A stretch of 64,000 nucleotides of DNA from an uncultured Ignavibacteriota bacterium (GTDB lineage: Bacteria > Bacteroidota > Ignavibacteria > UBA10030 > BY39), in NCBI GenBank assembly GCA_947085405.1, contig CAMTWO010000013.1:84193-148192 (forward strand), given 5' to 3'. The position numbers were made by a program, and so were the translations under genes. Shown here piece after piece: positions 36,998-64,000 of this stretch; position 1 is the first letter of the stretch; each line of letters opens with the position of its first letter. The notes beneath the pieces are model-generated. The model did not search any database, was not told the origin of the DNA, and worked only from the letters and a program-made list of their open reading frames with translations.

Positions 36998-36998
36998 T

Positions 36999-38015
36999 AT
37001 GGAAATATTAATTTCTCTTATCAAAATTTTAGTTGTCATGCTGGTGTTACTCACATGCGTTGCCTATCTTGTGTTGGTCGAACGCCGGGTTTCAGCATTC
37101 ATCCAAAATCGCATCGGTCCAAACCGCGTCGGTTACAAAGGATTATTGCAGCCCGTAGCCGATGTTATCAAATTATTCATCAAGGAAGATATTGTCCCGA
37201 AATTAGCCAACAAACCTCTACACCGACTTGCTCCTATAATTGCAATTGTTGTTGCACTTTCCACAATTGCTGTAGTTCCGTTCGGCGACAAAATTAATCT
37301 TTTCGGATACGAAATTAAACTTCAAATTGCATCTGTCAATATCGGAATTCTATACGCTCTTGCCTTAACTGGTTTAGGCGTTTATGGAATCGCTATAGCG
37401 GGTTGGGCTTCCAATAATAAATATTCACTATTAGGTGGGCTGCGTTCGTCAGCACAAATAATCAGCTACGAACTTTCGATGGGCATATCAATCGTCGGTG
37501 TAATTTTAGTTACAGGCACTTTAGAACTCGATAAAATTGTGGAATTCCAACATGGCTGGCGATGGTTGATTCTATTGCAGCCAATCGGGTTCATAACTTT
37601 TTTTGTTGCTGTTTTTGCTGAAACAAACCGGTTACCATTCGATCTTCCCGAAGCTGAACCCGAATTAGTCGGCGGCTACCACACAGAATACACCGGATTG
37701 AAATTCGGATTATTTTTCTTAGCCGAGTATGCAAATATGATTACAGGCAGCGCCATAGTTGTAACGCTTTATTTAGGGGGCTGGCAATTTCCGTATCTGC
37801 AATCTTTCGGGCTGCCTGAATTTTGGACGAGTATAATTCAAGTAGGAACATTCGCAGCGAAGGTCGGAGCAGTTTTACTGTTTATGATAATAATTCGTTG
37901 GACTGTTCCACGTTTTCGTTACGATCAATTAATGGATTTAGGTTGGAAATTTATGTTACCCCTTTCTATCGCTAATGTTATCGTAACAGCATTTATAATT
38001 TATTTATTCGAATAA
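36999..38015 (+). CDS. nuoH: NADH-quinone oxidoreductase subunit H
   Basis: 338 aa polytopic protein with conserved NuoH/ND1 motifs ([20 protein letters not shown]). Confidence 0.95.
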
Positions 38016-38019
38016 AACT

Positions 38020-38517
38020 ATGGCACAAACTAAAATTACTCACACAAGTGATTTATCATTTTGGCAGAAACTCTACATTCCGGAAATTGTAAAAGGTATG
38101 AAGATTACGATACGGCAGATGTTTCTTCCAAAATTCACACGCCAATATCCTGAAGAGAGATGGAATCCGCCAGCTTCGTTCCGCGGAAGTCCGGTTTTAG
38201 TTGAAGAAAATGGCAAGGAACGCTGCGTCGCATGCGGTCTATGTTCACGCGTATGCCCTGCTTTAGCTATCGAAGTTCAGGCATCTGAAACAGAATTGGA
38301 TAAAGAACGCTATCCCGTGAAATTCGAAATTAATATGCTTCGCTGTATCTTCTGCGGGCTTTGCGAAGAAGCATGCCCTGAAGAAGCAATAGTGATGAGC
38401 AAAGAATATGAATTAACTTTCAATAATCAGGAGGAAGCGATTTTTGGAAAAGATAAACTCCTTATTTCAAAAGAAAATTTAAAAGAACGATTGGAATACT
38501 TACGGCAGTATAGATAG
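38020..38517 (+). CDS. nuoI: NADH-quinone oxidoreductase subunit I
   Basis: 165 aa with two 4Fe-4S motifs ([24 protein letters not shown]). Confidence 0.9.
38446..38480. repeat. Direct repeat copy A (inside the nuoI 3' end)
   Basis: GGAAAAGATAAACTCCTTATTTCAAAAGAAAATTTA recurs almost identically at 38753-38789, immediately after the HicB-like gene. Confidence 0.7.
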
Positions 38518-44022: not shown

Positions 44023-45362
44023 AAGGGGAATTGATGGAAGGTTTAACATACAAACAAGTTAATGATTCTGTAATAAATACACTTGCCCCGCCGCGTAAGT
44101 TTTACTTTGCTATTGTCGGATTTTTCGCACTCCTGTTTGCTATGGGAATGAGTGTTTGGTTTTACATGATCGTTAATGGACTTGGAGTAGCGGGTATCAG
44201 GCATCCTGTTATGTGGGGTGTGTTTATTACGAACTTTGTTTTCTGGGTTGGTATTGCCCACTCAGGCACTCTGATCTCGGCGATACTTTATTTGTTCCGG
44301 GCAGAATGGCGAATGTCGATTTATCGCAGCGCCGAAGCGATGACTGTTTTTGCAGTCGCAACCGCCGGTATGTATCCGCTGATTCATTTGGGCAGAGTGT
44401 GGGTTGCCTATTGGACTTTACCTATACCGAACGAGATGCTTTTGTGGCCCAATTTCAAATCTCCATTAATTATGGACGTGATCGCAATCTCTACATATCT
44501 GACTGTAAGTGCGAGTTTCTTTTTAATCGGTTTGATACCCGATATTGCAGCGGTGCGCGAGAAAGCCACAGGCATCCGAAAGAAAATTTACACGATACTT
44601 TCTTTCGGCTGGCACGGAACGAACGAACAATGGCGGCACTACGGCAGGGCTTATCTTTTCTTCGCAGCTCTTGCAACACCGCTTGTCATATCTGTGCATA
44701 GCGTTGTGTCGTGGGACTTTGCTCTTTCGATCGTTCCCGGATGGCACAGCACGATATTCGCACCTTACTTCGTAGCCGGTGCAATTCACTCAGGACTCGC
44801 TCTCGTAATAACTCTACTCATCCCGTTACGAAAAATCTTCAAAGTCGAAAATATTATTACAATCAAAAATTTCGAAAGTATGGCAAAAGTTATTTTACTT
44901 ACAGGTTTGATTGTGGGGTACGCTTATGCAATCGAATATTTTTTGGCTTGGTATAGCGGTAACCCTTATGAACTTGCGATTTTCAAATGGCGTGCGAGTG
45001 GCGATTACGCCCCCGCATTTTGGACGATGGTAATTTGTAACAGTATCGTTCCTTTATTATTCTTCTTCAAAAAAATCAGAACATCAATTGTTGGACTTCT
45101 TGTCGTATCGATATTAATAAACGTAGGTATGTGGTTCGAGCGTTATGTAATAATTATAACTTCGCTTGCCCACGAATTTCTTCCTGCGGCTTGGGGCAAC
45201 TACTCACCAACTTGGGTTGAAATCGGGATCTCTTTCGGAAGCTGGGGTTTCTTTTTGATGTTGTTTTTCCTTTTTGCAAAATTCCTTCCTTCAATTTCAA
45301 TTACTGAAGTGAAAGAAATCCTCCCTACACCCAAAAGAAAAGGAGGCAGCAATGAACACTAA
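44019..45362 (+). CDS. actC: Alternative Complex III subunit ActC (NrfD/PsrC-like quinol-binding membrane subunit)
   Basis: 447 aa polytopic NrfD-family protein, translationally coupled to actB. Confidence 0.85.
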   Translation: MKGELMEGLTYKQVNDSVINTLAPPRKFYFAIVGFFALLFAMGMSVWFYMIVNGLGVAGIRHPVMWGVFITNFVFWVGIAHSGTLISAILYLFRAEWRMSIYRSAEAMTVFAVATAGMYPLIHLGRVWVAYWTLPIPNEMLLWPNFKSPLIMDVIAISTYLTVSASFFLIGLIPDIAAVREKATGIRKKIYTILSFGWHGTNEQWRHYGRAYLFFAALATPLVISVHSVVSWDFALSIVPGWHSTIFAPYFVAGAIHSGLALVITLLIPLRKIFKVENIITIKNFESMAKVILLTGLIVGYAYAIEYFLAWYSGNPYELAIFKWRASGDYAPAFWTMVICNSIVPLLFFFKKIRTSIVGLLVVSILINVGMWFERYVIIITSLAHEFLPAAWGNYSPTWVEIGISFGSWGFFLMLFFLFAKFLPSISITEVKEILPTPKRKGGSNEH

Positions 45363-45855
45363 AAAAATTATATCGGCTTCTTTTCTCTATGTTGACGATT
45401 TTGTAAATGTAATTAAACACTTCAAATCTGAAAAACGAAAATTCGTTACTTACTCACCAGTTCCCAATCACGAAATCGAAGAAGCTTTGGGGGCGAAAAA
45501 AAGTAAAGTCGGTTTGTTCACACTCGCCGGTGGTATTATAGGTTTGATAAGCGGATTTAGTTTAGCCGGATTTACAGCGGCAGAGTGGAATTTGGTTCTC
45601 GGCGGTAAACCTCCTGTTACTTTAATTCCTTTTGTTGTAATTGGATTCGAGTTCACGATTTTATTCGGCGCCCTCGCAACCTTGTTAGGTTTGATAATTA
45701 ACGCAAAGTTACCCTCATACAAAAAATTAAAAGGATATAAACCTGAATTTACCGTTGACCATTTTGGAATATCTTTGGAAGCTGATGAAACAGAGGTGGC
45801 ATCGCTCACCGACTCATTTAATACCTTCGGTGCCAAGGAGGTAACCTATGAATAG
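45352..45855 (+). CDS. actD: Alternative Complex III subunit ActD (DUF3341 membrane protein)
   Basis: 167 aa with two TM helices in the DUF3341 pattern. It overlaps both of its neighbours. Confidence 0.75.
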   Translation: MNTKKIISASFLYVDDFVNVIKHFKSEKRKFVTYSPVPNHEIEEALGAKKSKVGLFTLAGGIIGLISGFSLAGFTAAEWNLVLGGKPPVTLIPFVVIGFEFTILFGALATLLGLIINAKLPSYKKLKGYKPEFTVDHFGISLEADETEVASLTDSFNTFGAKEVTYE

Positions 45856-47098
45856 AGAACAACTTAGGCAGGCACTCGCAACTTCCATTGAAGCAAACGA
45901 CAAATCACTTTTCAAACCTTACCTGATAGCTCTGCTTGCGGTAGGAGTAGTAGGATTTTTGGTCGGAATGTTGGCGGGCGAAACTCAGCAAGTGATGCAG
46001 GCATATTTGATTAACTTTGTTTTTTGGATAGGCATTGCTCAAGGTGCGGTAATACTTTCGGTTGTGCTGCGACTTACAAACGCAAAGTGGGGAAGACCGA
46101 TCATGCGGATTGCCGAAAGTGCCTCGGCGTTTTTACCGGTTACAATTTTATTGTTTATAATAATTATGCTCGGCGGTGAAAAACTATTTATCTGGATTAA
46201 TGAACCTGTGGCTCACAAAGCAGCTTATCTGAATGCACCTTTTATGTATTCTCGCGTACTCGTTTCATTGGTGTTGATGACAGTTTTGAGTTTGATTTAT
46301 GTTGGAAACTCCATTCGTAACGATCTTGCAGCAATCTATCACGGTAAAATTGTTCCTGAACATTTCAGGAAATTATTAACAAACTACGATGTCAGCCGCA
46401 TCGAAAAATCGAACGATAAGCAAACTACATTGAGCGTAATTTTAGCAATTTGTTACGCCGTATGCTATTCGGTTTTAGCAATCGATTTAATTATGTCGCT
46501 CGACCCGCATTGGGTTAGTACTCTTTTCGGGGCTTACTATTTTATCGGTTGCTTTTACACGGGGATTGCATTCACGATAATTATGGCTTCATTTTTTATC
46601 GGACGACCCGAAGGTGAAATCATCGGCAGCAAACAGTTCCACGATTTAGGAAAATTACTTTTCGGGTTTGCAATTGTCAACGGCGATTTCTTCTACTCCC
46701 AATTTCTCGTAATCTGGTATGGCAATCTGCCCGAAGAAACACATTATATAATCGAACGGACTCAACACGAACCGTGGGCAACTATGGCTTACGTCGTTTT
46801 ACTTTTATCTTTTATTGCACCGTTTATAATCCTAATCAACAAAAAAATAAAAATGAATCCGGTCGCGATGCGGTGGATATCGATTGGAATCCTCTTGGGA
46901 TTGTGGTTAGAACGAACACTTTTAATAGCCCCCTCGGTTTCCGGCAATACATCGTTCCCAAACGTTTGGATTCAAATTACAATCACACTTGGATTCTTAG
47001 GAATTATCATAACATCAATTAAATACTTTTGGTCGAAATACCCAATGGTCGTTTACGGTGATCCACTACTAAAACATAGTTTGGAAGGCGAAAAATGA
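45848..47098 (+). CDS. actF: Alternative Complex III subunit ActF (ActC paralog)
   Basis: 416 aa. It is clearly homologous to ActC: NFVFWIGIAQGAVILSVVLRL..W aligns with NFVFWVGIAHSGTLISAILYL..W. Confidence 0.75.
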   Translation: MNREQLRQALATSIEANDKSLFKPYLIALLAVGVVGFLVGMLAGETQQVMQAYLINFVFWIGIAQGAVILSVVLRLTNAKWGRPIMRIAESASAFLPVTILLFIIIMLGGEKLFIWINEPVAHKAAYLNAPFMYSRVLVSLVLMTVLSLIYVGNSIRNDLAAIYHGKIVPEHFRKLLTNYDVSRIEKSNDKQTTLSVILAICYAVCYSVLAIDLIMSLDPHWVSTLFGAYYFIGCFYTGIAFTIIMASFFIGRPEGEIIGSKQFHDLGKLLFGFAIVNGDFFYSQFLVIWYGNLPEETHYIIERTQHEPWATMAYVVLLLSFIAPFIILINKKIKMNPVAMRWISIGILLGLWLERTLLIAPSVSGNTSFPNVWIQITITLGFLGIIITSIKYFWSKYPMVVYGDPLLKHSLEGEK

Positions 47099-47634
47099 GC
47101 GAAAATACAAATATCGAAAAACCGTTCCATCCGGTTTTCAAATGGTTTTTAATTGCATCGATGTTTGGCATAACATTATGGATGCTTCATCTTGTTTATA
47201 TTCAACCTCAGCAGAGGATAGGTGTTGCCCAACCGATTCCTTTCAGCCACCGCTTGCACGTTACTGATAAACAGATTGATTGCAAATATTGCCACAGCTA
47301 CACCGACCGTTCGCAATTTCCCGGGATGCCCGCTGTGCAATTGTGCGTCAGTTGCCACAAATACATTATCCCTCAGCATCCTGAAATTAAAAAGCTACAT
47401 TCGTATTACGATAATAATAAACCGATACCGTGGAAACGTGTATTTTTTCAACCCGATTTTGTTTTCTTCAATCACAAACGACATATAAAACTCGGGGTTG
47501 AATGCAAAACCTGCCACGGCAACATCGAACAAATGGACCGCGTTACGCAAACTTTCCCGATGAAAATGGAATTTTGTGTAACCTGCCATCGGCAGAATAA
47601 AGCTTCAGTAGAATGTTATATCTGTCATCATTAA
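47095..47634 (+). CDS. actA: Membrane-anchored pentaheme cytochrome c, ActA-like
   Basis: 179 aa with an N-terminal TM helix and five CxxCH motifs (CKYCH, CVSCH, CKTCH, CVTCH, CYICH). It is coupled to actF. Confidence 0.75.
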   Translation: MSENTNIEKPFHPVFKWFLIASMFGITLWMLHLVYIQPQQRIGVAQPIPFSHRLHVTDKQIDCKYCHSYTDRSQFPGMPAVQLCVSCHKYIIPQHPEIKKLHSYYDNNKPIPWKRVFFQPDFVFFNHKRHIKLGVECKTCHGNIEQMDRVTQTFPMKMEFCVTCHRQNKASVECYICHH

Positions 47635-47652: not shown

Positions 47653-49014
47653 GTGAAATTCTACGATAAACCAAACAGCGCCGCTAAACACTTCTACCTC
47701 ACATCTGTCTTCTGGGTAGTGATTGCAACTTTATACGGATTAACAGCAGCTATTGAGTTGGTGGCTCCCGATGTATTCGGTAATATTCCCGAATTGCTGT
47801 TCAGCCGCATCCGACCAATTCATGTCAATCTCGTATTGTTCGGCTTTTTAACTCCTTCGCTAATCGGTTCGGCGTTATACATTATTCCGGTGCTGACACA
47901 AACTAAACTTCACAGCGAACGCTTGGCTAATTTTTCTGTTTTATTGTGGAATATTTTTACCACTGCTTCAGTGGTTACACTATCACTCGGACAAAATCAG
48001 GGGCGCGAGTATGCTGAGTTAATTTGGCCCATCGACATACTGGTTATTATTTGCTTTCTCATTTTATCTTATGTTGTTGTTCGGACACTTTTAGATAGAA
48101 AAGAAAACCTGATGTTTGTTTCGCTCTGGTATATTACAGGTGCATTCATCTGGACTTCAATTTTATATACACTCGGTAACGTAGTATGGAATCCGGATAC
48201 CGGTGCACTCAAAGGTGTAACCGATGCAATCTGGCTTTGGTTTTACGGACATAATATTTTCGGCTTATTATTAACTCCGCTTGCAATCGGTGCCGCTTAT
48301 TACATTATCCCACGTGTAACCGGCGCTCCGATTTACAGCCATACACTTTCACTAATCGGTTTTTGGATGCTGCTTGTAATGTACACACACATCGGAACTC
48401 ATCATTTAATTCAAGCACCTGTTCCGCAATGGCTAAAAGTAATTTCAATCGTTGACTCAATCGGAATGCTGATTCCTGTCATGACTTTTTTGGCGAATGT
48501 ATGGCTGCCGCTGAAAGACCGTTTCGGAAAAATCCACAGAGACATCGGCGGTAAGTATGTTTTTGCCGGAACAATATTTTACTTTTTAGTTTGTATCCAA
48601 GGTCCGCTCCAATCGCTTCCTTCGGTTCAACGCGTTACACATTTTAATAATTGGGTTGTTGCACACGCTCATCTCGCATTACTCGGTTTTGCTGCTTTTA
48701 TTGCAATAGGTGCAATGTATTATTTTCTTCCAAAAGTTACCGGAAGAGAAATTTACTCGAAGACACTCGCCGATTTTCAATATTGGCTGATGATGATTGG
48801 TGTGAATGGATTCTTCCTCGTCTTAACCGCAGTTGGTTTGGTGCAGGGGAGTTCGTGGTTACACGGCGAAACTATTTACCGCATTTTACCTGAGATGCAG
48901 CCATACTTTGTAATCCGAATTTTATTAGGTGTATTTGTAGTCTCCGGCTTTTTAATCGGTCTATATAATGTTGTGATGACGATATTCAAAGGGAAGGAGG
49001 TTGAATCAATATGA
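47653..49014 (+). CDS. ccoN: Heme-copper oxidase catalytic subunit, cbb3-type CcoN-like
   Basis: 453 aa with 12 TM helices. It has a conserved His in TM2, WFYGHNIFGLLLT (CuB His), an HH pair (GTHHL), and an HAH pair in a late helix. Confidence 0.75.
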   Translation: MKFYDKPNSAAKHFYLTSVFWVVIATLYGLTAAIELVAPDVFGNIPELLFSRIRPIHVNLVLFGFLTPSLIGSALYIIPVLTQTKLHSERLANFSVLLWNIFTTASVVTLSLGQNQGREYAELIWPIDILVIICFLILSYVVVRTLLDRKENLMFVSLWYITGAFIWTSILYTLGNVVWNPDTGALKGVTDAIWLWFYGHNIFGLLLTPLAIGAAYYIIPRVTGAPIYSHTLSLIGFWMLLVMYTHIGTHHLIQAPVPQWLKVISIVDSIGMLIPVMTFLANVWLPLKDRFGKIHRDIGGKYVFAGTIFYFLVCIQGPLQSLPSVQRVTHFNNWVVAHAHLALLGFAAFIAIGAMYYFLPKVTGREIYSKTLADFQYWLMMIGVNGFFLVLTAVGLVQGSSWLHGETIYRILPEMQPYFVIRILLGVFVVSGFLIGLYNVVMTIFKGKEVESI

Positions 49015-49973
49015 AAATGACAACGAGTGTTTTACTTGCAGGCACGATGATAATATTTGCAGTGATATTTGTGATTGTTGTTTTAATACCGACTTACCAA
49101 GCGGAAGTGAATCCTTCGGAGATGGTTCGTGAGCGAACAGATATCGAAGATGAAGGAAGACAAATTTATATTGCTAACGGCTGCACATATTGCCACTCGC
49201 AGTATATTCGACCGCAGGATTGGGACTTAGGGGCTGAGAGAATAGCCAAAGAAGGCGATTACGTGTTAGACGAACCGGTATTGCTTGGTTCCATTCGCAC
49301 TGGTCCCGATTTGTCGCAAGCAGGAGGCGAACATCCTGACGACTGGCATCGCGCACATTTTATAAATCCACGCTACACTCGTCCCGAATCAATTATGCCG
49401 CCATTCAAATTTTTAGGGGACGAAAAAGTAAAGTCGCTTACTGCTTATGTGCAAAGTCTCGGTGGCAAGGATGCAGACGCCCGTGTTAGCCGGCAAAAAC
49501 ATTGGCATAAAATATTAACTGAAGCTTACGAAAAAGGTCCCGATTCAAACGTCGCAACATTGCATCGCCATATTCCTGAGATGTGGATAAATATGCCGAA
49601 CCCGTATCCAGCAACCGAGGCAGGTTTGAAACGAGGCGAACGGATTTACCAATCCTTCTGTCTCGGATGCCATGGACCTGTTGGAGATGGACAAGGTCCC
49701 GCAGCTAAATATTTATATCCGCCGCCTCTTAATTTTACTGTTTTAAAAAGAACAGGTGTTTCGGGTGGAATTTTCTACTATCAAATAATGAACGGTATTA
49801 CAGGCACGGCTATGCCCTACTTCAAACGTGAACTCGAATCGGAAAAAATTTGGGATGTATCGAATTATGTGATGATAAATTTTGTAGGAAAGAACGATGC
49901 CAACACAGAACCCCGCGGTATAGATGCATCTTATGAACCGGTTGACACTTCAACAGCGAAAGGAGGTAAATAA
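49011..49973 (+). CDS. ccoO: cbb3-type oxidase diheme subunit: CcoO fused to an extra monoheme CcoP-like domain
   Basis: 320 aa with a TM anchor and CcoO/FixO signatures (NGCTYCHSQYIRP...GPDLSQAG...WHRAHFINPRYTRPESIMPPF). A second heme domain follows (CLGCHGPVGDG...GTAMPYF). Confidence 0.75.
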   Translation: MKMTTSVLLAGTMIIFAVIFVIVVLIPTYQAEVNPSEMVRERTDIEDEGRQIYIANGCTYCHSQYIRPQDWDLGAERIAKEGDYVLDEPVLLGSIRTGPDLSQAGGEHPDDWHRAHFINPRYTRPESIMPPFKFLGDEKVKSLTAYVQSLGGKDADARVSRQKHWHKILTEAYEKGPDSNVATLHRHIPEMWINMPNPYPATEAGLKRGERIYQSFCLGCHGPVGDGQGPAAKYLYPPPLNFTVLKRTGVSGGIFYYQIMNGITGTAMPYFKRELESEKIWDVSNYVMINFVGKNDANTEPRGIDASYEPVDTSTAKGGK

Positions 49974-50245
49974 TGTTTTTACAATTTTGGATTTTATTTA
50001 TGATCGTCGGGCTTACCATTTCGATGTGGGTTTTTTATTGGGCTGTTCGCAAAGGGCAGTTCGAAGAACAAGACAGGGCAAAATATTTGCCTCTGTTACA
50101 CCCGCCACAAACAAATAATACGACAGATGTTTTAAAGGGCGAACAAAAATTTGTCTGGTCGCCTGAACTTATTAGTTTACTGATTGCTATGTTTTTAGCA
50201 TTAACGGCAATCGCGAGAATGCTTTATATCGTTTTTACAAATTAA
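49973..50245 (+). CDS. Small membrane protein, CcoS/FixS- or CcoQ-like
   Basis: 90 aa with a TAATG overlap to ccoO and an AGGAGG SD. The N-terminal TM is followed by RKGQFEEQD, which resembles the CcoS R-x-GQ-[FY]-[DE][DE] motif. Confidence 0.45.
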   Translation: MFLQFWILFMIVGLTISMWVFYWAVRKGQFEEQDRAKYLPLLHPPQTNNTTDVLKGEQKFVWSPELISLLIAMFLALTAIARMLYIVFTN

Positions 50246-50262
50246 TTTGAAAGGATATTTAT

Positions 50263-50529
50263 ATGCCTCCGTATGAAATTTTGCAGGAACAATATATACT
50301 CCTTGCTTTGTTAGGCGGGACTGTGCTTGTTACTTTTTTGTATGTTGCGATAAACACATTCCGTACATATAAACGAAAAGAAGCAACTGAAAAAATAGAA
50401 AAATTTCCCGACGGAATTACTGAAGGACATAAACCGATTCCTCTTTTTCTGATTTTACTTTACATCGCATATTTTCTGTGGGCGATTATTTACGTTGGAG
50501 CTGTTGCAATTTGGGGTTTTAATTTTTAA
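50263..50529 (+). CDS. Small two-TM membrane protein (oxidase-associated, unknown)
   Basis: 88 aa with a good SD and two hydrophobic helices. Confidence 0.35.
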   Translation: MPPYEILQEQYILLALLGGTVLVTFLYVAINTFRTYKRKEATEKIEKFPDGITEGHKPIPLFLILLYIAYFLWAIIYVGAVAIWGFNF

Positions 50530-50787: not shown

Positions 50788-51279
50788 ATGATAAATATTA
50801 CTGCTTTATTATTAATATCGCTGTTACTGATAGGGTGTGAATACGGACGAATGTATGACCAACCGAATCCGAGACCGACTAAAATTGTTCAGCAGACTGT
50901 TCCTGAAAACATAGTGCAGAGCACTAAAGGTTACGGTGAACGGGAAATGAAAGTCAACCCATACCAACCAACAGGAGAAAATTTAAAGTTCGGTCAGAAA
51001 ACGTATCGAGCATTCTGCCGCCATTGTCACGGTGCCGATTGGAAAGGTCATACTCACGTTGGCGATGGTTTCCCTGTGCCGCCAACCGATTTAAACCTGC
51101 AACAAATCCAAACTAAACCCGACTCTGATTTTTATGCACATATATATTATGGTGGGAAATACTCGCCGGCTTTGGGCACAAACATGTCCGACGAAGAAAT
51201 ATGGAAAGTGATTATGTTAATTAAAACCGGGAGAACCAAAACAATTGATTCGTGTGTTGTAAACATACCTATTAACTAG
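50788..51279 (+). CDS. Monoheme c-type cytochrome lipoprotein (possible ActE/CcoP-like electron carrier)
   Basis: 163 aa with a lipobox (LLLIGC) and a single CRHCH heme motif. It has class I cytochrome c features. Confidence 0.65.
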   Translation: MINITALLLISLLLIGCEYGRMYDQPNPRPTKIVQQTVPENIVQSTKGYGEREMKVNPYQPTGENLKFGQKTYRAFCRHCHGADWKGHTHVGDGFPVPPTDLNLQQIQTKPDSDFYAHIYYGGKYSPALGTNMSDEEIWKVIMLIKTGRTKTIDSCVVNIPIN

Positions 51280-51350
51280 ACTAGAACAAGCATCTTTTTG
51301 CATCTCCACCACATTTTTCTTATCTTAATTCAACTCAAAGAAAAAATATT

Positions 51351-51560
51351 ATGCTTATTATTCAACCACAAAAAGTAACTTCAAGCGAAATTGTATTAAA
51401 GAAAAGCGATTTTGAAGAACTTATCAAACGAGCCAATCAAGTTGAAAAAGTAATTATTACAAAATCAGATAATACATATCGTTTAGAAGATGTAGAATTT
51501 ACATTACATGATATTTGGGATAATCAGGACGACGAAATAATATGGCAGAAGTATTTGTAA
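51351..51560 (+). CDS. Putative antitoxin partnered with the MazF-like toxin
   Basis: 69 aa ORF immediately upstream of, and overlapping by 19 nt, a MazF/PemK-like gene. Its sequence is not diagnostic. Confidence 0.4.
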   Translation: MLIIQPQKVTSSEIVLKKSDFEELIKRANQVEKVIITKSDNTYRLEDVEFTLHDIWDNQDDEIIWQKYL

Positions 51561-51826
51561 ACCAACGAGAAATATGGTTGTGTCCATTCCCATTTTCTGA
51601 TCTGTCAGGTAAAAAAGTACGCCCTGTTCTAATTCTATCCAACGAAACATATAATTCTTCGTGTCAAGATGTTGTCGTTTGTGCAGTTACTGCACAAATC
51701 AAATACCAACCGTATTCAATAGTAGTTGGCCAAAGAAATTGTGAACAAGGCAATTTGTTGCACGAATCAGCAATCAAAGTGGATTCGTTATTTAAGCTGA
51801 ATAAAAATTTATTGTTAAAATCTTAA
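51542..51826 (+). CDS. MazF/PemK-family endoribonuclease toxin
   Basis: 94 aa. REIWLCPFPFSDLSGKKVRPVLILSNETYNSSCQDVVVCAVTAQ parallels E. coli MazF GDLIWVDFDPTKGSEQAGHRPAVVLSPFMYNNKTGMCLCVPCTTQ. Confidence 0.7.
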   Translation: MAEVFVNQREIWLCPFPFSDLSGKKVRPVLILSNETYNSSCQDVVVCAVTAQIKYQPYSIVVGQRNCEQGNLLHESAIKVDSLFKLNKNLLLKS

Positions 51827-51837
51827 TAAAGGAAACA

Positions 51838-52929
51838 ATGAATAACATAAATATAGATAATATTCTGAATGCTTTAAAAGTTGTTATAGACCCCGACCTA
51901 CACAAAGATATAGTTACACTTGGGTTTGTAAAAGACATTAAGATAGACAATAGAGATGTAAGTTTCAAAATAGAATTAACAACACCCGCCTGTCCGGTGC
52001 GAGATCAGTTCAAGATGGCTGCTACAAAAGCTATCAGGGATGCTTTTCCGGAAGTCGGCGACATCCAGATTGAAATGACGAGCAGCGTTCGTAGAGCACC
52101 GCAGCTCAATTTGAACAACATACTGACTAATGTAAAAAACACAATCGCCATTGCCAGTGGTAAAGGCGGCGTTGGCAAATCGACTGTTGCCGTAAATTTA
52201 GCAGTAGCTTTAGCTCAGGATGGCGCCAAAGTTGGCTTGATAGATTCCGATATTTACGGTCCGAGCATTCCGCTGATGATGGGTATAAACGCTTCTCCAA
52301 AGTTGATAAAGAACAAATTAATACCACTTGAGGCTCACGGTGTAAAAGTAATGTCGATTGGTTTTTTAGTCGATCCGAATCAGGCAGTTATTTGGCGCGG
52401 TCCAATGGCAAGCGGAGCTGTAAGGCAATTTATGACCGATGTTGAATGGGGCGATTTAGATTACTTGATTTTCGATTTGCCTCCGGGAACCGGCGATATC
52501 CAATTAACACTCGTGCAAACAATTCCTTTGTCGGGTGCAGTAATCGTTACGACGCCACAGGATATTTCACTTGCCGATGCCCGCAAAGGTTACGCAATGT
52601 TCGAGAAGGTGAACGTCCCGATTCTCGGCATCATCGAAAATATGAGCTATTTTATCTGTTCGCATTGTGGTCAGCGTGAGGAAATATTTTCGTACGGTGG
52701 TGGTCGGAAAGAAGCCCAAGAGTTGGGCACCCAGTTTTTAGGCGAGATTCCGATTGATACAAAGATTCGCATCGGTGGCGATGTTGGTGTGCCGATTGTT
52801 GCACAGGATAAAAACTCTCCTCAGTCAACGGCAATCAAAAACATTGCCCGCAATATGGTTGCACAATTAAGTATTAATGCCATTAATGGAATTACGACAA
52901 AAAGAGTAGAAGTAAATTTAAACATTTAA
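51838..52929 (+). CDS. apbC: Fe-S cluster carrier ATPase Mrp/ApbC (NBP35 family) with an N-terminal DUF59/MIP18 domain
   Basis: 363 aa with a deviant Walker A (IAIASGKGGVGKSTVAVNLA) and a CxxC motif (CSHC). Confidence 0.9.
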   Translation: MNNINIDNILNALKVVIDPDLHKDIVTLGFVKDIKIDNRDVSFKIELTTPACPVRDQFKMAATKAIRDAFPEVGDIQIEMTSSVRRAPQLNLNNILTNVKNTIAIASGKGGVGKSTVAVNLAVALAQDGAKVGLIDSDIYGPSIPLMMGINASPKLIKNKLIPLEAHGVKVMSIGFLVDPNQAVIWRGPMASGAVRQFMTDVEWGDLDYLIFDLPPGTGDIQLTLVQTIPLSGAVIVTTPQDISLADARKGYAMFEKVNVPILGIIENMSYFICSHCGQREEIFSYGGGRKEAQELGTQFLGEIPIDTKIRIGGDVGVPIVAQDKNSPQSTAIKNIARNMVAQLSINAINGITTKRVEVNLNI

Positions 52930-52935
52930 ACTGCG

Positions 52936-53181
52936 ATGGAATCAAAAGAAAAATCGCTAGTCGAACGTATTGAAGAAGCCCTTAATTTTTGCAGGCCTTA
53001 TCTTCAAGCCGATGGCGGCGATGTCGAGTTTGTAAACGTCAGTGATGACGGAATCGTAAACTTACGTTATTTAGGTGTCTGCAAAAATTGTCCCCTCTCG
53101 CTTTTAACTTTGCGAGCAGGAATCGAACGTTCGGTTTTAAAAAATGCACCCGAAGTGAAAAGGGTGGAATTAGTAGCGTGA
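52936..53181 (+). CDS. NifU-like (Nfu C-terminal domain) Fe-S scaffold protein
   Basis: 81 aa with the motif RPYLQADGGDVEFVNV...GVCKNCP (CxxC). Confidence 0.75.
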   Translation: MESKEKSLVERIEEALNFCRPYLQADGGDVEFVNVSDDGIVNLRYLGVCKNCPLSLLTLRAGIERSVLKNAPEVKRVELVA

Positions 53182-53317
53182 ACAGAATCTTAATGTATAT
53201 CTCAATAAACTAAAAGCACCAAAGATAAACCGCTTCAGTGGTTTTCAACGATGAACGCTCAACGTGAGTTATATTAATCATAAAAAATAAACCGTTAGGT
53301 AACGAAAGGAGTAACAA

Positions 53318-54619
53318 ATGAATTATCCGTTCTGGGATATTCCTTTTATTGGTGGTGGAATACTTATTGGCTTTGTAGCCATTATACATACATTCGTAGC
53401 TCAATTTGCAATCGGTGGTGGACTGTTTCTTGTCCTTACCGAACACAAAGCTTACCGCGAAAATAATCCCAAAATTATAGACTATCTAAAAATCCATTCT
53501 AAATTTTTTATCCTCCTCACACTCGTATTTGGCGCACTTACTGGTGTTGCGATCTGGTTTACCATCGGACTTGTAACGCCGATGGCTACTTCTTCACTGA
53601 TTCATATATTTGTTTGGGGATGGGCAATCGAGTGGGTCTTTTTTTTCATCGAAATCGCCGCTGCTATGATTTACTACTACACGTGGGACAAGCTCGACAG
53701 GAAAACTCATCTAACAATTGGTTGGATTTATTTTATCGCGGCGTGGATGAGTTTGTTCGTTATCAACGGCATACTCACATTTATGCTCACACCCGGCGAT
53801 TGGCTGCAAACTAAAAGTTTCTGGGATGCGTTTTTCAATCCCACGATGCTGCCATCACTCGTAATGCGAACTGCTGTAACTATCGCACTGGCAGGGCTAT
53901 ATGCTCTATTGACTTCGTCAAATTTAAAAGACGATGACCTCAGGAAAACAATGGTAAAATATTCAGCTAAATGGCTCGTTCTTCCGTTTATCATTATGCC
54001 TATCGGTGGTTTGTGGTTCGTGATGACGCTGCCCGACATGGCGTTCGATATAATTTCCGGCGGTGCACCCGCAGTTACTCTATTTGCTGCTGCGGGAGTT
54101 TTCTTTTCAATTCTAATTTTTGTGTTCGCATACTTTTTACCTTACCGTCATCCGGAAAGATTTCCCGTAGCGTTAGCTGTTTTATTCCTGATGTTAGGAT
54201 TATCAGTAACCGCTGTAAGCGAATGGGTGCGCGAAGCAATCCGAAAGCCATTCATCATATACGATTATATGTATTCAAATAATGTCTTTAAAACCGAAGC
54301 TGATAATTTTAGAATTGCCGGTATCTTGCCATCTGCAAAATGGGCGGCAGTGAATTCAGTGGATGAAGCAAATATTATGAAAGCAGGCGAACAAGTTTTT
54401 AAACTTCAATGCCAAAGCTGCCACACTGTTCAAGGTTATAACGGAATTAAAATATTAACAAAGGGCTGGCAGGAGCCATTCATCGAAAACCAAATCGAAC
54501 ATTTGAACCAACTTAAAGGATTTATGCCGCCTTTTATGGGTTCAGAATCTGAAAAGAAAGCACTTGCAAAATGGTTGTACGAATTGAATAAAACTGAAAA
54601 AATTATTAGAAATCAATAA
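53318..54619 (+). CDS. Cytochrome bd-family (CydA-like) membrane protein fused to a C-terminal monoheme cytochrome c domain, paralog 1
   Basis: 433 aa with an AAGGAG SD. The N-terminus (IIHTFVAQFAIGGGLFLVLTE) and WGWAIEWVFFFIEIAAAMIYYYTW resemble the CydA helix-I His and helix-III glutamate region. The C-terminus has CQSCH...MPPFMG. Confidence 0.6.
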   Translation: MNYPFWDIPFIGGGILIGFVAIIHTFVAQFAIGGGLFLVLTEHKAYRENNPKIIDYLKIHSKFFILLTLVFGALTGVAIWFTIGLVTPMATSSLIHIFVWGWAIEWVFFFIEIAAAMIYYYTWDKLDRKTHLTIGWIYFIAAWMSLFVINGILTFMLTPGDWLQTKSFWDAFFNPTMLPSLVMRTAVTIALAGLYALLTSSNLKDDDLRKTMVKYSAKWLVLPFIIMPIGGLWFVMTLPDMAFDIISGGAPAVTLFAAAGVFFSILIFVFAYFLPYRHPERFPVALAVLFLMLGLSVTAVSEWVREAIRKPFIIYDYMYSNNVFKTEADNFRIAGILPSAKWAAVNSVDEANIMKAGEQVFKLQCQSCHTVQGYNGIKILTKGWQEPFIENQIEHLNQLKGFMPPFMGSESEKKALAKWLYELNKTEKIIRNQ

Positions 54620-55933
54620 ATGAATTATCCAATCTGGGAAGTACCAATAATCGGCGGCGGTTGGCTAATCGGTATTGTCGCGGTGATACACGTGTTCGTT
54701 GCCCACTTTGCTGTGGGAGGCGGATTGTTCCTTGTTCTTACCGAACGGAAAGCATACCGCACGAACGATTTAAATATTTTAAACTATGTAAAAAAACATA
54801 CCAAATTTTTTCTGTTATTAACAATTGTCTTCGGTGCGTTAACCGGAGTAGCAATCTGGTTCACAATCGGACTCGTTAATCCGCAGGCAACATCGGCCCT
54901 TATACACATTTTCCTTTGGGGATGGGCAATCGAGTGGGTCTTCTTTTTTATAGAAATCGCTGCGGTTATGATTTACTTTTATACTTGGGATAAAATTAGC
55001 CGAAGAACTCATCTGGTAATCGGCTGGATTTACTTCATTTCAGCGTGGATGAGTATGGTAGTCATCAACGGTATTTTATCGTTTATGCTAACACCGGGTG
55101 CATGGACTCAAACACGAGATTTCTGGGATGGCTTAATTAATCCTACTTATTTTTCATCTTTAGCTTTCAGAACTCTTACGGCGATTGTCTTGGCGGGAAT
55201 ATATGCACTATTCACAGCTTCGTTATTGAAAGATAAAAAAGTTAAACAAACGATCGTTAAATATTCAAGCAAGTGGGTGCTGCCATTTATGCTTCTGCTT
55301 CCGCTGGCAGGGCTTTGGTATTATCTGACGCTGCCCGAAATTCCGCGCGAAATAATTTTAGGCGGAATTACTTTCGTTTCTGATACGGCAATTTTCGGTT
55401 TGATTGCCGGCGCCCTGATCTTCATAACAGTTTTGATAATGGGATTTCTAAAACCAAATTTATACAACACTCCCATAGCTGTTTTCGTACTTCTATTGGG
55501 TTTGGCTTCGATGTTTGCCGGCGAGCGGGTGCGCGAATCGGTCCGCAAACCTTTTGTGCTTGTTGATTATATGTACTCGAATGGATTGCTTTTAAGTGAA
55601 TTCGATAAAATTAAAGAAACCGGTTTAATCAAGAACTCGAAGTGGTCGAAGATGAAGGAAGTGAACGAACAAAATCAACTTGAAGCAGGCAAGGAAGCAT
55701 TCAAGCTGTACTGTTCGAGCTGCCATATCATAAACGGTTACAACGATGTAAAGCCGCTGATAACTGAATACGATGTAGAGATGCTGACAATGATAATAAG
55801 CGATTTAGAAAATTTTAAGGGTTATATGCCGAAGTTTGCAGGCACTGAAACCGAAGCTGCTGCGATAGCAAAATGGTTAGTAGAATTTAATAAAGAAAAT
55901 AATCCGTTAGCTAACGGAAGGAGAAAAAAATGA
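54620..55933 (+). CDS. Cytochrome bd-family (CydA-like) membrane protein fused to a C-terminal monoheme cytochrome c domain, paralog 2
   Basis: 437 aa. It is collinear with paralog 1 (HVFVAHFAVGGGLFLVLTE, WGWAIEWVFFFIEIAAVMIYFYTW), with a C-terminal CSSCH...MPKFAG. Confidence 0.6.
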   Translation: MNYPIWEVPIIGGGWLIGIVAVIHVFVAHFAVGGGLFLVLTERKAYRTNDLNILNYVKKHTKFFLLLTIVFGALTGVAIWFTIGLVNPQATSALIHIFLWGWAIEWVFFFIEIAAVMIYFYTWDKISRRTHLVIGWIYFISAWMSMVVINGILSFMLTPGAWTQTRDFWDGLINPTYFSSLAFRTLTAIVLAGIYALFTASLLKDKKVKQTIVKYSSKWVLPFMLLLPLAGLWYYLTLPEIPREIILGGITFVSDTAIFGLIAGALIFITVLIMGFLKPNLYNTPIAVFVLLLGLASMFAGERVRESVRKPFVLVDYMYSNGLLLSEFDKIKETGLIKNSKWSKMKEVNEQNQLEAGKEAFKLYCSSCHIINGYNDVKPLITEYDVEMLTMIISDLENFKGYMPKFAGTETEAAAIAKWLVEFNKENNPLANGRRKK

Positions 55934-57060
55934 TAGATCAAACGATGATTCCCGATATCGACCCTATAGCTTTACCCGCACCGATATGGCTATTGAAATT
56001 TTTATTGCTGTTTACTTTTACACTCCACATTCTCGCTATGAATGTGGCAGTGGGGGGTGGTTTTGTTGCTGCTTTTACTGAATTCTTTGGAAAGAAAAAG
56101 AAAAGCCAAAATCATTTCGACTTGAGTCGCGGGATTGCCAAAATGCTGCCACCGTTCACAGCATTCACAATTACATTAGGCGTTGCACCCCTTTTGTTCT
56201 TACAGGTTTTATACGGTCAGTTCTTTTATACATCTACTATTTTAATGGCTTGGCCCTGGTTATCGGTTATCGTAATTTTTATTTTAGCTTATTACGGTTA
56301 CTATATTTTCTCATTCAGATGGGAAAAGCTAAACGGCAAAAGATTATGGGTAGTGCTGATAAGTGCCACAATGTTAGCAACGATAGGTCTGATTTACGTA
56401 AACAATATCGTTTTGATGCTTACCCCCGAAAAATGGAAAGCGATGTACTTTGCTAATCCACACGGAACACACATGAATTTTGATGACGCCACACTTATAC
56501 CTCGCTATTTGCATTATATGATTTCAGCATTAGCAGTAGCTGGTGTAGTTGTTATAATGTGGGGGATGAGAAAGCTGAAAACTAACGAACAACTTGGGAA
56601 GTGGGCAATCCGTTATGGCGCCTGGTGGTTTTTAATTCCCACGTTTATAAATATCGGTGTAGGGGTGTGGTGGTTGATTTCCTTACCGCGTGAATTTATG
56701 TTGATGTTTATGGGGGGGAATTCGCTTGCTACCGGCTACTTCTTGGTTGGACTTGCTTCGATATTTATTAGTATCATGTTAATGTTTGTTGGAATGAATG
56801 CCGCTAAACCGATTGGAAAAATAATGGCTGCGAAGTTATTCTTTCTAATAACTATCGTAACGATGATTTTGATGCGGCACGAATTACGCGAAGAATATCT
56901 GAAACCATACATCAATTGGGATGCAGTCAGAACCGAACCGCAGTGGGGTGTAATAATAATTTTCGCATTACTACTCGTCGGTGGTTTGATTACGGTTATC
57001 TGGATGTTGAAAAAATCTTTTGCAAAACCGGCTAATATCACTCAGACTGATATTCAATAA
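55930..57060 (+). CDS. Degenerate CydA-like membrane paralog without a heme c domain (CydA'-type partner candidate)
   Basis: 376 aa with the same N-terminal architecture (LHILAMNVAVGGGFVAAFTE). The conserved glutamates of the helix-III motif are replaced (ILMAWPWLSVIVIFILAYYGYY), and there is no CxxCH. Confidence 0.5.
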   Translation: MIDQTMIPDIDPIALPAPIWLLKFLLLFTFTLHILAMNVAVGGGFVAAFTEFFGKKKKSQNHFDLSRGIAKMLPPFTAFTITLGVAPLLFLQVLYGQFFYTSTILMAWPWLSVIVIFILAYYGYYIFSFRWEKLNGKRLWVVLISATMLATIGLIYVNNIVLMLTPEKWKAMYFANPHGTHMNFDDATLIPRYLHYMISALAVAGVVVIMWGMRKLKTNEQLGKWAIRYGAWWFLIPTFINIGVGVWWLISLPREFMLMFMGGNSLATGYFLVGLASIFISIMLMFVGMNAAKPIGKIMAAKLFFLITIVTMILMRHELREEYLKPYINWDAVRTEPQWGVIIIFALLLVGGLITVIWMLKKSFAKPANITQTDIQ

Positions 57061-57331
57061 TGAACATGTGTTTTAAAAATTTTGTGATAATTCAGAAGAT
57101 CTAACTCAACCCTGCACAGTTTAATCCCAGTGGGGCTGTCCCCAAAGTAGGTTTTCTCGATACATCCCGCCGCTTTCAGCGTCGGGACACTCGAGAACCG
57201 ACTAAATTAGCCGGTTCTCGAGTAGCAACGACGTAGTCGGTGCGTATCGAGAGAACATATAAGACAGCCGATAAGTTGGATGTTTCAGAAAACCAAATCT
57301 CAAATCTCAAAACCCAAATAGGAACTTAACT

Positions 57332-61748: not shown

Positions 61749-64000
61749 ATGTTGAATCTTATGTCATGCCATAGGCAGATTCGCCGTGGCGAAAAATCCG
61801 CCGCAGGCGGAAAACACTTAATTTCAATCTTCACAATTTGCATTCTCGCATTGTTTGTAATGAGCAACGCAGATGCACAAGTCCCTAACAAAATTTCGTA
61901 TCAGGGACTTTTAACAACTTCCGCTGGCACACCCGTGCAGGATGGGAGTTATAATTTACAATTCAATTTATTCAAAAGTCTAAGCGTCGGGTCTTCGTTA
62001 TGGTCTGAAACACATACCGACGTTCTTGTTCAGCGTGGAACATTTAGTGTAATGCTAGGCTCCATTAATCCACTTCCTGATATTTTCAATCAACCACTAT
62101 TTGTCGAAGTAGGGACAATAAATCCCAATGTTACATTTTCGCCGCGGTCGGAGTTGACGAGCGCACCATATTCATTCAACGCAAAAGTGGCTGACTCGGC
62201 GAATACCGTGGCAAATGGTGCTATAACGTCAGTAAAGATACTCGATGGAACGATTACAAATTCTGATATTGCTCCAAACGCTGCCATAGCTCCATCAAAA
62301 ATTGATACTGCCAATCTTGGCGCAATACGGGTGGGTGGATATGCCGTCAGTGCAACCCCACAACCCAATAAACTTCTCCCTTTGAGCGCAACAGGTACGA
62401 TCCCTGGAAATATCATTGAAGGCACAACATTACCTGGCGCACACGCATCGTCACATAACGAAAGCGGAAGTGATCCTATAAATGTAACTACTGGAGTAAT
62501 AGCTGACAATGCAATCACAAGTTCTAAGATTCAGGATGGGACTATCCAGCGCACCGATGTGCAATTATCTTTTAAGGCTCCTTACTCAGATACTGCAGAT
62601 TATGCAAAGGGTGCACCACCAGCTGGTAATGCTGGAGGAGATTTAACAGGCACATATCCGTATCCGACCATTGTCACTGATGCTGTTACGAGCGCGAAGA
62701 TTGCAGATGGAACGATCCAGCGAGTTGATGTTCAATCGAGCTTCAAAGCACCATATTCCGACACTGCTGATTATGCGAAGGGTGCGCCACCAGCAGGTAA
62801 CGCAGGTGGAGATTTAACGGGCACATATCCAAATCCAACTATTGTTAGCAATGCAATCACAAGTGCAAAGATATTGGATGGCACTGTAACAAGTGCAGAT
62901 ATATCTGATGGGACAATTCAGCGTGTTGATGTTCTATCAACATTTAAGGCTCCATATTCTGACACAGCGGACTATGCGAAGGGTGCGCCACCGGCAGGAA
63001 ATGCTGGTGGAGATTTGACGGGAACATTTCCGAATCCTACAATAGTAAGCAATGCAGTTACAAGTGCTAAGATTCTTGATGGAACAATTGCTGGCTCTGA
63101 TATTAGTACAACTGCAGCAATGAATATAGCTACGTTAACAACGACTGGCAACGTCGGCATCGGGATATCGGAACCTAATGAAAAGTTGGAAGTATCGGGT
63201 AATATAAAATCCATTGGTGGAGATTTATATCTTTTTACTACTGCTAGGAGTCCAAGGGAGGCTAGACTTGCTGCATCAGGTAACGTTGGAGAAACCGTGG
63301 GTCGAGTTAATTTTTATCAAACGGGGTATGGTCAGGATGGCGTATGTGCTGCTCTTGAAGGAAGAGTTAGTTCCGATGGTACCGGTGCGGGTGAACTTTA
63401 TTTGAGAACGAGGCCATATTTGATGGCAGGTCCGCAAGATAGAATAAAGATTGATCGTTTGGGTAATGTATTTGTTACAAGTGGAAATTTGTTAATTCCG
63501 GACGGCAACGTCGGCGTTGGGACAACCAGCCCGGCTCAAAGAATGGATGTCGCTGGTACCGTACAGATGACGGGATTAAAAATGACTACGAGTCCTACGA
63601 ACGGTTATATATTAACGTCTGATGCTTCTGGTGTTGGTACATGGCAACCGGCAAGTATTGGGGGAACAGCCGGTGGTGACCTGACTGGGACATATCCTAA
63701 TCCAACAATAGCCAGTAATGCTGTAACATCAGCAAAGATTTTGGATGCTACGATAGCGACAGGTGATTTGGCTGATGCCTCGGTTACTTCTGCAAAAATA
63801 GCAGATGGGACAATTACTGGATTGGATATTAGTACAACTGCGGCGTTGAATATAGCTTCGTTAACGACGACCGGCAACGTTGGCATCGGGACGATGAGTC
63901 CGGGGGCGAAATTACATTTATATGCTGGTGGAGCAGGGAATGTGCTTCAAATAGGAAATGCAGGGTATAAATATATTTATGCTACAGAAACTAATGATAA
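61749..64000 (+). CDS. Large secreted repeat protein (tail-fibre-like TSAKI(A/L)DGT repeats), N-terminal part; continues past the window end
   Basis: An AAGGAG SD lies 8 nt upstream of the ATG, and there is a signal peptide (ISIFTICILALFVMSNADAQ). The frame is open to the window end, over 750 aa. It has four or more copies of a ~60-aa unit (APYSDTADYAKGAPPAGNAGGDLTGTYPNPTIVSNAVTSAKILDGT...) and G-N-V-G-I-G-T-x-S-P motifs. Confidence 0.6.
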   Translation, partial: MLNLMSCHRQIRRGEKSAAGGKHLISIFTICILALFVMSNADAQVPNKISYQGLLTTSAGTPVQDGSYNLQFNLFKSLSVGSSLWSETHTDVLVQRGTFSVMLGSINPLPDIFNQPLFVEVGTINPNVTFSPRSELTSAPYSFNAKVADSANTVANGAITSVKILDGTITNSDIAPNAAIAPSKIDTANLGAIRVGGYAVSATPQPNKLLPLSATGTIPGNIIEGTTLPGAHASSHNESGSDPINVTTGVIADNAITSSKIQDGTIQRTDVQLSFKAPYSDTADYAKGAPPAGNAGGDLTGTYPYPTIVTDAVTSAKIADGTIQRVDVQSSFKAPYSDTADYAKGAPPAGNAGGDLTGTYPNPTIVSNAITSAKILDGTVTSADISDGTIQRVDVLSTFKAPYSDTADYAKGAPPAGNAGGDLTGTFPNPTIVSNAVTSAKILDGTIAGSDISTTAAMNIATLTTTGNVGIGISEPNEKLEVSGNIKSIGGDLYLFTTARSPREARLAASGNVGETVGRVNFYQTGYGQDGVCAALEGRVSSDGTGAGELYLRTRPYLMAGPQDRIKIDRLGNVFVTSGNLLIPDGNVGVGTTSPAQRMDVAGTVQMTGLKMTTSPTNGYILTSDASGVGTWQPASIGGTAGGDLTGTYPNPTIASNAVTSAKILDATIATGDLADASVTSAKIADGTITGLDISTTAALNIASLTTTGNVGIGTMSPGAKLHLYAGGAGNVLQIGNAGYKYIYATETND

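Follow-up and report, generated by a model that had tools for sequence, protein, structure and literature searches.

The 64,000-nucleotide (nt) stretch analysed here (the window), from contig CAMTWO010000013.1 of an uncultured Ignavibacteriota bacterium, contains an operon of three cytochrome bd (CydA)-related open reading frames (ORFs), ORF1, ORF2 and ORF3, which almost certainly belong to the OR-C family as judged by homology and conserved residues. ORF1 and ORF2 are assigned on this basis to OR-C1a, and ORF3 to OR-C1b. In the reading that we prefer, with a probability of roughly 0.55, the operon encodes a cytochrome-c-oxidising, bd-type O2 reductase made of C1a/C1b heterodimers, here probably in two isoforms. 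OR-C is, with qOR and OR-N, one of the three families of the bd superfamily (Murali, Gennis and Hemp 2021, bioRxiv 10.1101/2021.01.16.426971; ISME J version). An original prediction, made from the DNA letters, had presented the three genes as a candidate cytochrome-c-fed enzyme and mentioned phylogenomic surveys listing bd clades with fused heme c domains; those clades correspond to OR-C of Murali et al. Because architecture and proposed donor had thus been published in 2021, the novelty was overstated. What is new is the gene content: two "a" subunits and one "b" subunit of a known, biochemically uncharacterised family.

Organization of the operon

All three genes lie on the + strand, with exactly the coordinates and lengths originally given, and the sequence blocks quoted for them were found in the ORFs as stated. 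ORF1 (53318-54619; 433 amino acids [aa]) is an OR-C1a-type CydA homolog of the O1 subclade, with eight predicted transmembrane (TM) helices and a C-terminal cytochrome c domain. ORF2 (54620-55933; 437 aa), a second OR-C1a-type homolog (O2 subclade), has the same architecture and 55% identity to ORF1 over the full length. ORF3 (55930-57060; 376 aa) is the OR-C1b-type partner, with a CydA/CydB fold, nine predicted TM helices and no heme c. A Shine-Dalgarno-like AAAGGAG, read from the sequence, is located at 53305-53311 (+), 6 nt upstream of the ORF1 start. The TAA of ORF1 abuts the ATG of ORF2, and the stop codon of ORF2 overlaps the start codon of ORF3 (ATGA), with GGAAGGAG upstream of the ORF3 start. 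The three genes are evidently translationally coupled and form a single operon. The ratio of nonsynonymous to synonymous substitution rates (dN/dS), relative to the orthologs in locus L003, was 0.145 for ORF1, 0.092 for ORF2 and 0.043 for ORF3. Values of 0.15 or less indicate that all three genes are functional and under purifying selection.

ORF1 and ORF2 have a bd-type core and a fused cytochrome c domain

Pfam Cyt_bd_oxida_I (PF01654) matched ORF1 (E 8e-18) and ORF2 (E 6e-20) in the N-terminal half only, at profile positions 4-228 of 418, and Cytochrome_CBB3 (PF13442) matched both at residues ~353-420. These two matches bear out the earlier description of ORF1 and ORF2 as CydA-superfamily proteins with fused class-I heme c domains. 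In ORF1 this domain (aa ~345-433) is encoded at 54350-54616 (+). Each protein has a single CxxCH heme c motif at residues 365-369: CQSCH in ORF1 (54410-54424, +) and CSSCH in ORF2 (55712-55726, +). The axial ligand Met403 of ORF1, in GFMPPF (54524-54526, +), is family-invariant.

Alignment of the OR-C1a profile with E. coli CydA (hhalign) equated His24 with His19, the axial ligand of the active-site heme; Glu105 and Glu112 with the proton-channel residues Glu99 and Glu107; His131 with His126; and Tyr119 and Tyr121 with Phe114 and Phe116. His24 of ORF1 is encoded at 53387-53389 (+), and Glu105...Glu112 (E-x6-E) at 53630-53653 (+). ORF2 carries H24, E105, E112 and H131 as ORF1 does, so the equivalents of H19, E99 and E107 proposed originally are present in both proteins, together with that of H126. 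The two glutamates are found within WAIEWVFFFIEIA in both proteins, with six residues between them; relative to E. coli E99/E107 this is a one-residue deletion in the hhalign alignment, typical of qOR3-like enzymes. H24, E105, E112, H131, Y119 and Y121 were invariant in the 26 and 27 diverse OR-C1a homologs compared, as were E42, H60, R184, E302, R305, E306 and R309, and likewise C365, C368, H369 and Met403. ORF1 and ORF2 each retain every one of these family-invariant residues.

The AlphaFold2 model of ORF1 (predicted confidence, pLDDT, 82) has eight TM helices in residues 13-309, followed by a helical cytochrome c domain. The TM6-TM7 connections are short, and the core is ~310 aa. The earlier argument that the core is too short for a Q-loop holds, given eight TM helices in ~310 aa and a Pfam match that ends at about position 221-228 of 418. 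Model and alignments indicate that ORF1 and ORF2 have neither a Q-loop nor a quinol site. Solved structures have established that the N-terminus of CydA is periplasmic. Because the number of TM helices is even (eight), the heme c domain is predicted to be periplasmic as well, on the side of the membrane where hemes of c type become attached.

At position 183, the putative place of the heme b558 ligand His186, ORF1 has Met and ORF2 has Phe, and the residue varies across the family. This place was assigned transitively, from the hhalign alignment of the ORF1 and ORF3 families and the numbering of Murali et al. Reliable alignment in profile searches of PDB sequences was limited to TM1-4, and when the family profiles of ORF1 and ORF3 were aligned globally with E. 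coli CydA and CydB (hhalign), the probability was <1% and nothing past TM4 could be trusted.

These features bear on the possibility that the operon encodes an ordinary quinol-oxidising, CydAB-like cytochrome bd, or that one of its copies is a decaying duplicate. Homologs are annotated publicly as "cytochrome ubiquinol oxidase subunit I"; however, the PF01654 match stops at ~228 of 418, and the eight-TM core of ~310 aa has no Q-loop. The original statement that CydB is absent also held: no match to PF02322 (CydB) above threshold was obtained among the window ORFs scanned, and cydB was not a conserved neighbour in the 75 loci described below. With E. coli CydA and CydB as queries, phmmer found no match in any ORF of the fetched loci, but it was too insensitive to serve as evidence, because OR-C1a genes were missed too; the absence of cydB is accordingly taken from the Pfam scans of the window and the neighbour clustering. 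Against a decaying copy stand the dN/dS of 0.15 or less in all three genes and the retention of family-invariant residues. Both possibilities are very improbable, and we rejected the quinol oxidase for want of a Q-loop and CydB, and the decaying duplicate because of purifying selection.

ORF3 is a conserved partner subunit

ORF3 had no match in Pfam or NCBIfam. Its BLASTP alignment with ORF1 extended over 310 aa (E 1e-12), the family profiles of ORF1 and ORF3 matched each other with 98.7% probability (E 2e-16, 298 columns), and the ORF3 family profile matched Geobacillus CydA (5doq_A; E 1e-4). By these comparisons ORF3 is a true CydA paralog. Its AlphaFold2 model (pLDDT 88) has nine TM helices. 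In the alignment, His33 (56026-56028, +) occupies the position of His19. As the original prediction had noted, both channel glutamates and CxxCH are missing; V113 and A120 replace the glutamates.

The same prediction had called ORF3 degenerate, and this was not upheld. Among 28 diverse ORF3 homologs 37 positions were invariant, including H33, M37, N38, Q92, Y95, Y100, W110, Y121, Y122, Y125, M163, P191, R192, H195, M312, R316 and R320, and the gene is the most constrained of the three (dN/dS 0.043 vs 0.09-0.15). A degenerate gene or pseudogene was rejected on these two grounds. The family is also large: a 90%-identity database holds >1,800 clusters of it, none of them annotated; 1.84 billion representative proteins yielded 749 clusters at 50% identity (E <= 1e-30); and at least 596 GTDB species genomes have a member. 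ORF3 is evidently a conserved OR-C1b subunit, predicted to take the structural place of CydB.

The invariant His195 (56512-56514, +) aligned in hhalign with position 183 of ORF1, the place of canonical His186 in the numbering of Murali et al. OR-C1b may thus bind, via His195, a heme that C1a cannot.

Assignment to the OR-C family

The OR-C1a reference row in Supplementary Table 6 of Murali et al. lists eight TM helices, H24, E105, E112, S145, H131, Y119 and Y121, with F183 replacing H186 and no M393 or E445. ORF1 and ORF2 agree with this row at H24, E105, E112, Y119, Y121, H131 and S145. OR-C1b is described there as the adjacent paralog; "b"-type subfamilies mostly lack the glutamates, and His19 is kept in all cydA paralogs (10.1101/2021.01.16.426971). 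The OR-C1b list of the same work consists mainly of "hypothetical protein" entries with 0 heme c and gene IDs adjoining OR-C1a genes, and its taxa include Acidobacteriaceae such as Granulicella. The taxa of ORF3 homologs overlap that list (Granulicella and other Acidobacteriaceae).

OR-C1a and OR-C1b form a conserved gene pair

We used the window proteins to annotate 80 genome loci that carry ORF3 homologs. In ~75 of the 80 GTDB loci one OR-C1a gene was located directly upstream of the ORF3 homolog. The pair occurred in Ignavibacteriales, Kryptonia, Acidobacteriota, Calditrichia, Armatimonadota and others, and all-against-all neighbour clustering (75 loci) revealed no third conserved gene beside it. 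Two in-frame C1a-C1b fusions were found, P0287 (798 aa) and a 987-aa ORF at L063:8123-11086; their topology is consistent, as C1a ends and C1b starts in the periplasm. Because such natural fusions exist, a 1:1 C1a/C1b complex is suggested.

Some variants were observed. P0276 is an OR-C1b with a C-terminal CLTCH heme c domain, and P0385 an OR-C1b with a C-terminal CusF-like and SCO1-like region that could be a merged gene call. In metagenome loci L092, L095, L099 and L101, OR-C1b lies upstream of OR-C1a, the reverse of the usual order; the spacing is 1.5-2.8 kb in three of these, and the genes directly abut in L101.

Besides the window, a tandem of two C1a genes was present only in L001-L003 and L006, all from Ignavibacteriales or Bacteroidota metagenome-assembled genomes. 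The ORF3 orthologs of L003 and L006 have 95% and 70% identity, respectively. A metagenome scan with ORF2 gave 19 loci, with no close ORF2 orthologs and no triad. In a neighbour-joining tree of 72 OR-C1a proteins (200 bootstraps), ORF2 clustered with single-copy Ignavibacterium-type genes (L007, L009, L011) in 197 of 200 bootstraps. ORF1 clustered with a different set (L008, L010, Kryptonia and Armatimonadota), and the two were sisters in 2 of 200 bootstraps only; a recent tandem duplication was rejected for this reason. Because ORF1 and ORF2 fall apart in the tree, the tandem evidently joins two old OR-C1a subclades, each of which occurs singly in other genomes. C1a proteins outside this group are mostly diheme (two CxxCH, ~520 aa), and those of this group are monoheme.

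ORF1, ORF2 and ORF3 might instead constitute one obligate three-subunit enzyme, with two heme c entry modules or two active sites. Translational coupling of all three genes would fit such an enzyme, as would retention of the tandem in relatives whose orthologs are down to 70% identical (L006). Since most other C1a are diheme, two monoheme subunits could also supply the same number of hemes c. However, pairs of monoheme C1a with C1b and no second C1a are common (L007-L011, L013, L018, L034, L062 and L074), the natural fusions are 1:1, and each C1a subclade goes with C1b alone in other genomes. We consider the three-subunit enzyme unlikely. A bd enzyme of new composition, in which OR-C1b carries its own b-type heme(s) via His33/His195, and which is either an obligate complex of three CydA paralogs with two entry modules for cytochrome c electrons or a pair of isoenzymes on different donors (e.g. 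ACIII [alternative complex III] and a soluble cytochrome c), is similarly doubtful. If this were true, heme binding would be redistributed between subunits relative to canonical bd oxidases.

Proposed function

For OR-C, a cytochrome c donor and O2 reduction have already been inferred from conserved active-site architecture (10.1101/2021.01.16.426971). The periplasmic cytochrome c donor named in the original prediction is likewise the natural one to propose. Our preferred reading, a cytochrome-c-oxidising O2 reductase of C1a/C1b heterodimers, builds on homology, domain architecture, conserved residues, gene pairing, fusions and purifying selection, all of which the analysis shows; heme content, donor, O2 as acceptor and stoichiometry are what we infer from them. 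A periplasmic or membrane-anchored c-type cytochrome would reduce the C-terminal heme c (His369/Met403) of OR-C1a; the heme c subunits of the nearby ACIII and the 163-aa cytochrome c encoded at 50788 are candidate donors. The electron would then pass to the His24-ligated heme(s) in the TM1-4 bundle. O2 would be reduced at this site, with cytoplasmic protons delivered via Glu112, Glu105 and His131. As in canonical bd oxidases, charge separation would generate the membrane potential, and no protons would be pumped. A 1:1 OR-C1a/OR-C1b heterodimer would form the basic unit. This organism would most likely make it in two isoforms, ORF1-ORF3 and ORF2-ORF3, which might suit different donors or O2 levels. 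For cytochrome c:O2 oxidoreductase activity in itself, we put the chances at about even.

Several observations weigh against this reading. In agreement with the original prediction, which knew of no biochemical characterisation, our literature search found no OR-C enzyme that had been purified or assayed, and no OR-C structure was found in the PDB, where the best matches were canonical CydA (16-19% identity). With Met (ORF1) or Phe (ORF2) at position 183, OR-C1a appears to lack the ligands of heme b558, and its set of hemes would then have to differ from the canonical bd one. OR-C is common in strict anaerobes (Desulfovibrio, Thermodesulfovibrio, Sulfurospirillum). SMUL_0150, listed as an OR-C1a, was 39.5-fold up in anaerobic S. 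multivorans adapted to pyruvate fermentation (PMC6242987), and this induction, the one expression datum found, does not point to aerobic respiration. A literature search with the locus tags of cultured carriers returned this Sulfurospirillum proteome paper only; a Melioribacter multi-omics paper covers canonical cydAB only, and a 2026 cryo-EM paper cites OR-C only as a phylogenetic class. Nor is the ACIII/cbb3 neighbourhood of the operon conserved across OR-C loci: the respiratory block is shared only with L003 and L006, this neighbourhood is found only in the closest relatives (L001-L003 and L006), and no ACIII or cbb3 genes lie within 10 kb in ~70 other OR-C loci. The functional link to ACIII and cbb3 drawn originally from synteny was not supported, the C1a-C1b pair alone being kept family-wide. 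Finally, the present evidence does not discriminate between stoichiometries.

Some of these points favour an alternative in which the OR-C assembly is the same, but O2 is not its physiological acceptor or its role is not energy conservation. The oxidant might be NO, H2O2 or nitrite; the complex might transfer electrons across the membrane or in the periplasm as a module of anaerobic metabolism; or it might serve chiefly to scavenge O2 and reactive oxygen species. The abundance of OR-C in strict anaerobes, where an OR-C1a of Desulfovibrionia can have as many as 8 hemes c, would agree with such a role, as would the induction of SMUL_0150 in fermentation-adapted anaerobic Sulfurospirillum, the lack of heme b558 ligands and canonical E445 in the OR-C1a row of their table, and the fact that no measurement of OR-C activity was found. 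However, the bd residues of the O2 site and proton channel (equivalents of H19, E99, E107 and H126) are family-invariant, the operon sits in an aerobic-respiration block (Nuo subunits, ACIII, cbb3, CcoI/CcoS), and "anaerobes" commonly have canonical bd oxidases too, which serve there to detoxify O2. We regard this alternative as somewhat unlikely, though it is the main rival.

Genomic neighbourhood

The genes upstream of the operon, on the + strand, encode NuoG, NuoH and NuoI, a CcoI-like Cu-ATPase, ACIII (ActB, ActC, ActD and ActF, with a pentaheme QrcA/ActA-like cytochrome) and cbb3 components. CcoN is followed by a CcoO-cytochrome c fusion, CcoS, a FixP_N-like peptide, a 163-aa cytochrome c, MazF, Mrp/ApbC and a NifU-like protein. 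In this lineage the operon evidently belongs to a block of respiratory genes. It does not lie immediately downstream of cbb3, as first described, since the cytochrome c, MazF, Mrp/ApbC and NifU-like genes intervene (50788-53181). The neighbourhood suggests possible donors in this organism and is not evidence at the level of the family.

Several details of this block were unusual or worth recording. The NuoG-, NuoH- and NuoI-like genes (35306-38517) lie directly upstream of the CcoI/ACIII/cbb3 block, and no further nuo genes were found among the window ORFs scanned. The ACIII cluster (41185-47634), with a CcoI-type Cu-ATPase gene directly upstream, has the unusual order ActB, ActC, ActD, ActF, followed rather than preceded by a 179-aa pentaheme cytochrome that comes closest to QrcA (a below-cut-off NCBIfam match, E 1e-28); ActE is missing. 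In the 49011-50529 part of the cbb3 cluster, CcoO is fused to a C-terminal cytochrome c domain (320 aa, two CxxCH), and CcoS is followed by an 88-aa protein with the FixP N-terminal domain only; there is no full-length CcoP. A gene for a MazF/PemK-type toxin (51542-51826) separates the cbb3 cluster from the Mrp/NifU genes; the window, L001 and L003 have it, but the otherwise syntenic L006 does not.

Other features of the window

The spacer between ORF3 and a ZIP transporter gene (57100-57275, +) contains a GC-rich multi-hairpin element in an AT-rich genome. Its predicted RNA fold has a minimum free energy of -75.2 kcal/mol (z-score -8.3 vs shuffles), and Rfam searches of the window and of this spacer gave no family. 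The spacer 3' of ORF3 in L003 has a different GC-rich hairpin cluster; L004 and L006 have a short spacer only. The element may be an insertion resembling repetitive extragenic palindromes or miniature inverted-repeat transposable elements, a terminator, or a small RNA. At ~61800-64000 (+), an ORF still open at the window end encodes a secreted protein of >700 aa with a signal peptide, ~67-aa tandem repeats (...ITSAKILDGTI...DI...) and 201-nt direct repeats; with 0.45, its GC content exceeds the window average. A set for squalene synthesis resembling HpnC/HpnD/HpnE is encoded at 17013-20103: two genes of the squalene/phytoene synthase family and, after them, a flavoprotein gene of the amine oxidase family.

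Significance

OR-C is one of three families in the bd superfamily. If its members are cytochrome c oxidases, they would provide a copper-free route from cytochrome c to O2, which present metabolic reconstructions overlook or record under the wrong names, "ubiquinol oxidase subunit I" and "hypothetical protein". The locus adds that conservation is strongest in OR-C1b, which also has its own candidate heme ligands and in some cases is fused to OR-C1a; that two old monoheme OR-C1a subclades can share one operon; and that gene neighbourhood does not tie OR-C to ACIII or cbb3. It leaves current thinking on OR-C unaltered, and its value is that of a well-described example and a pointer, notably to the overlooked OR-C1b.

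Comparison with known systems

The cbb3-type heme-copper oxidase encoded nearby (47653-50529) offers a functional analogy only, as a membrane oxidase fed through its own heme c domains and typically used at low O2. Unlike OR-C, it has an unrelated fold and a heme-copper centre, and it pumps protons.

Canonical CydAB (E. coli bd-I, 6RKO; Geobacillus, 5DOQ/5IR6) has a Q-loop and quinol site, and CydB with CydX or CydS, none of which is found in the operon. The heme-c-bearing subunits of the operon appear to have no His186 or Met393, and electrons would enter through the fused cytochrome c.

Archaeal CydAA' (qOR4a/qOR4b; Caldivirga maquilingensis) is similar in its second subunit, which, as described by Murali et al., is a CydA paralog rather than CydB, keeps His19 and has lost the channel glutamates, like ORF3. 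CydA of CydAA' differs from ORF1 and ORF2 in that it oxidises quinol, has no heme c and keeps the equivalents of H186 and M393, which the two ORFs appear to lack. CydAA' is archaeal and arose by an independent duplication. Membership of the operon in this group was rejected: although it includes a partner derived from CydA (ORF3), its catalytic subunits have heme c and no quinol site.

OR-C as described by Murali et al. resembles the operon most fully. Its OR-C1a has eight TM helices, a C-terminal periplasmic heme c, no quinol site, and H19/E99/E107 with the qOR3-like one-residue deletion, like ORF1 and ORF2; its adjacent "b" paralog has H19 and no glutamates, like ORF3; and it occurs in Bacteroidota, Acidobacteriota, Armatimonadota and others. 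ORF3 differs in having nine predicted TM helices vs eight, and the invariant His195, Met163 and Met312 of OR-C1b do not appear in the tables of that work. OR-C is described in its text and tables as a pair, whereas the operon combines two "a" subunits of different subclades with one "b" subunit.

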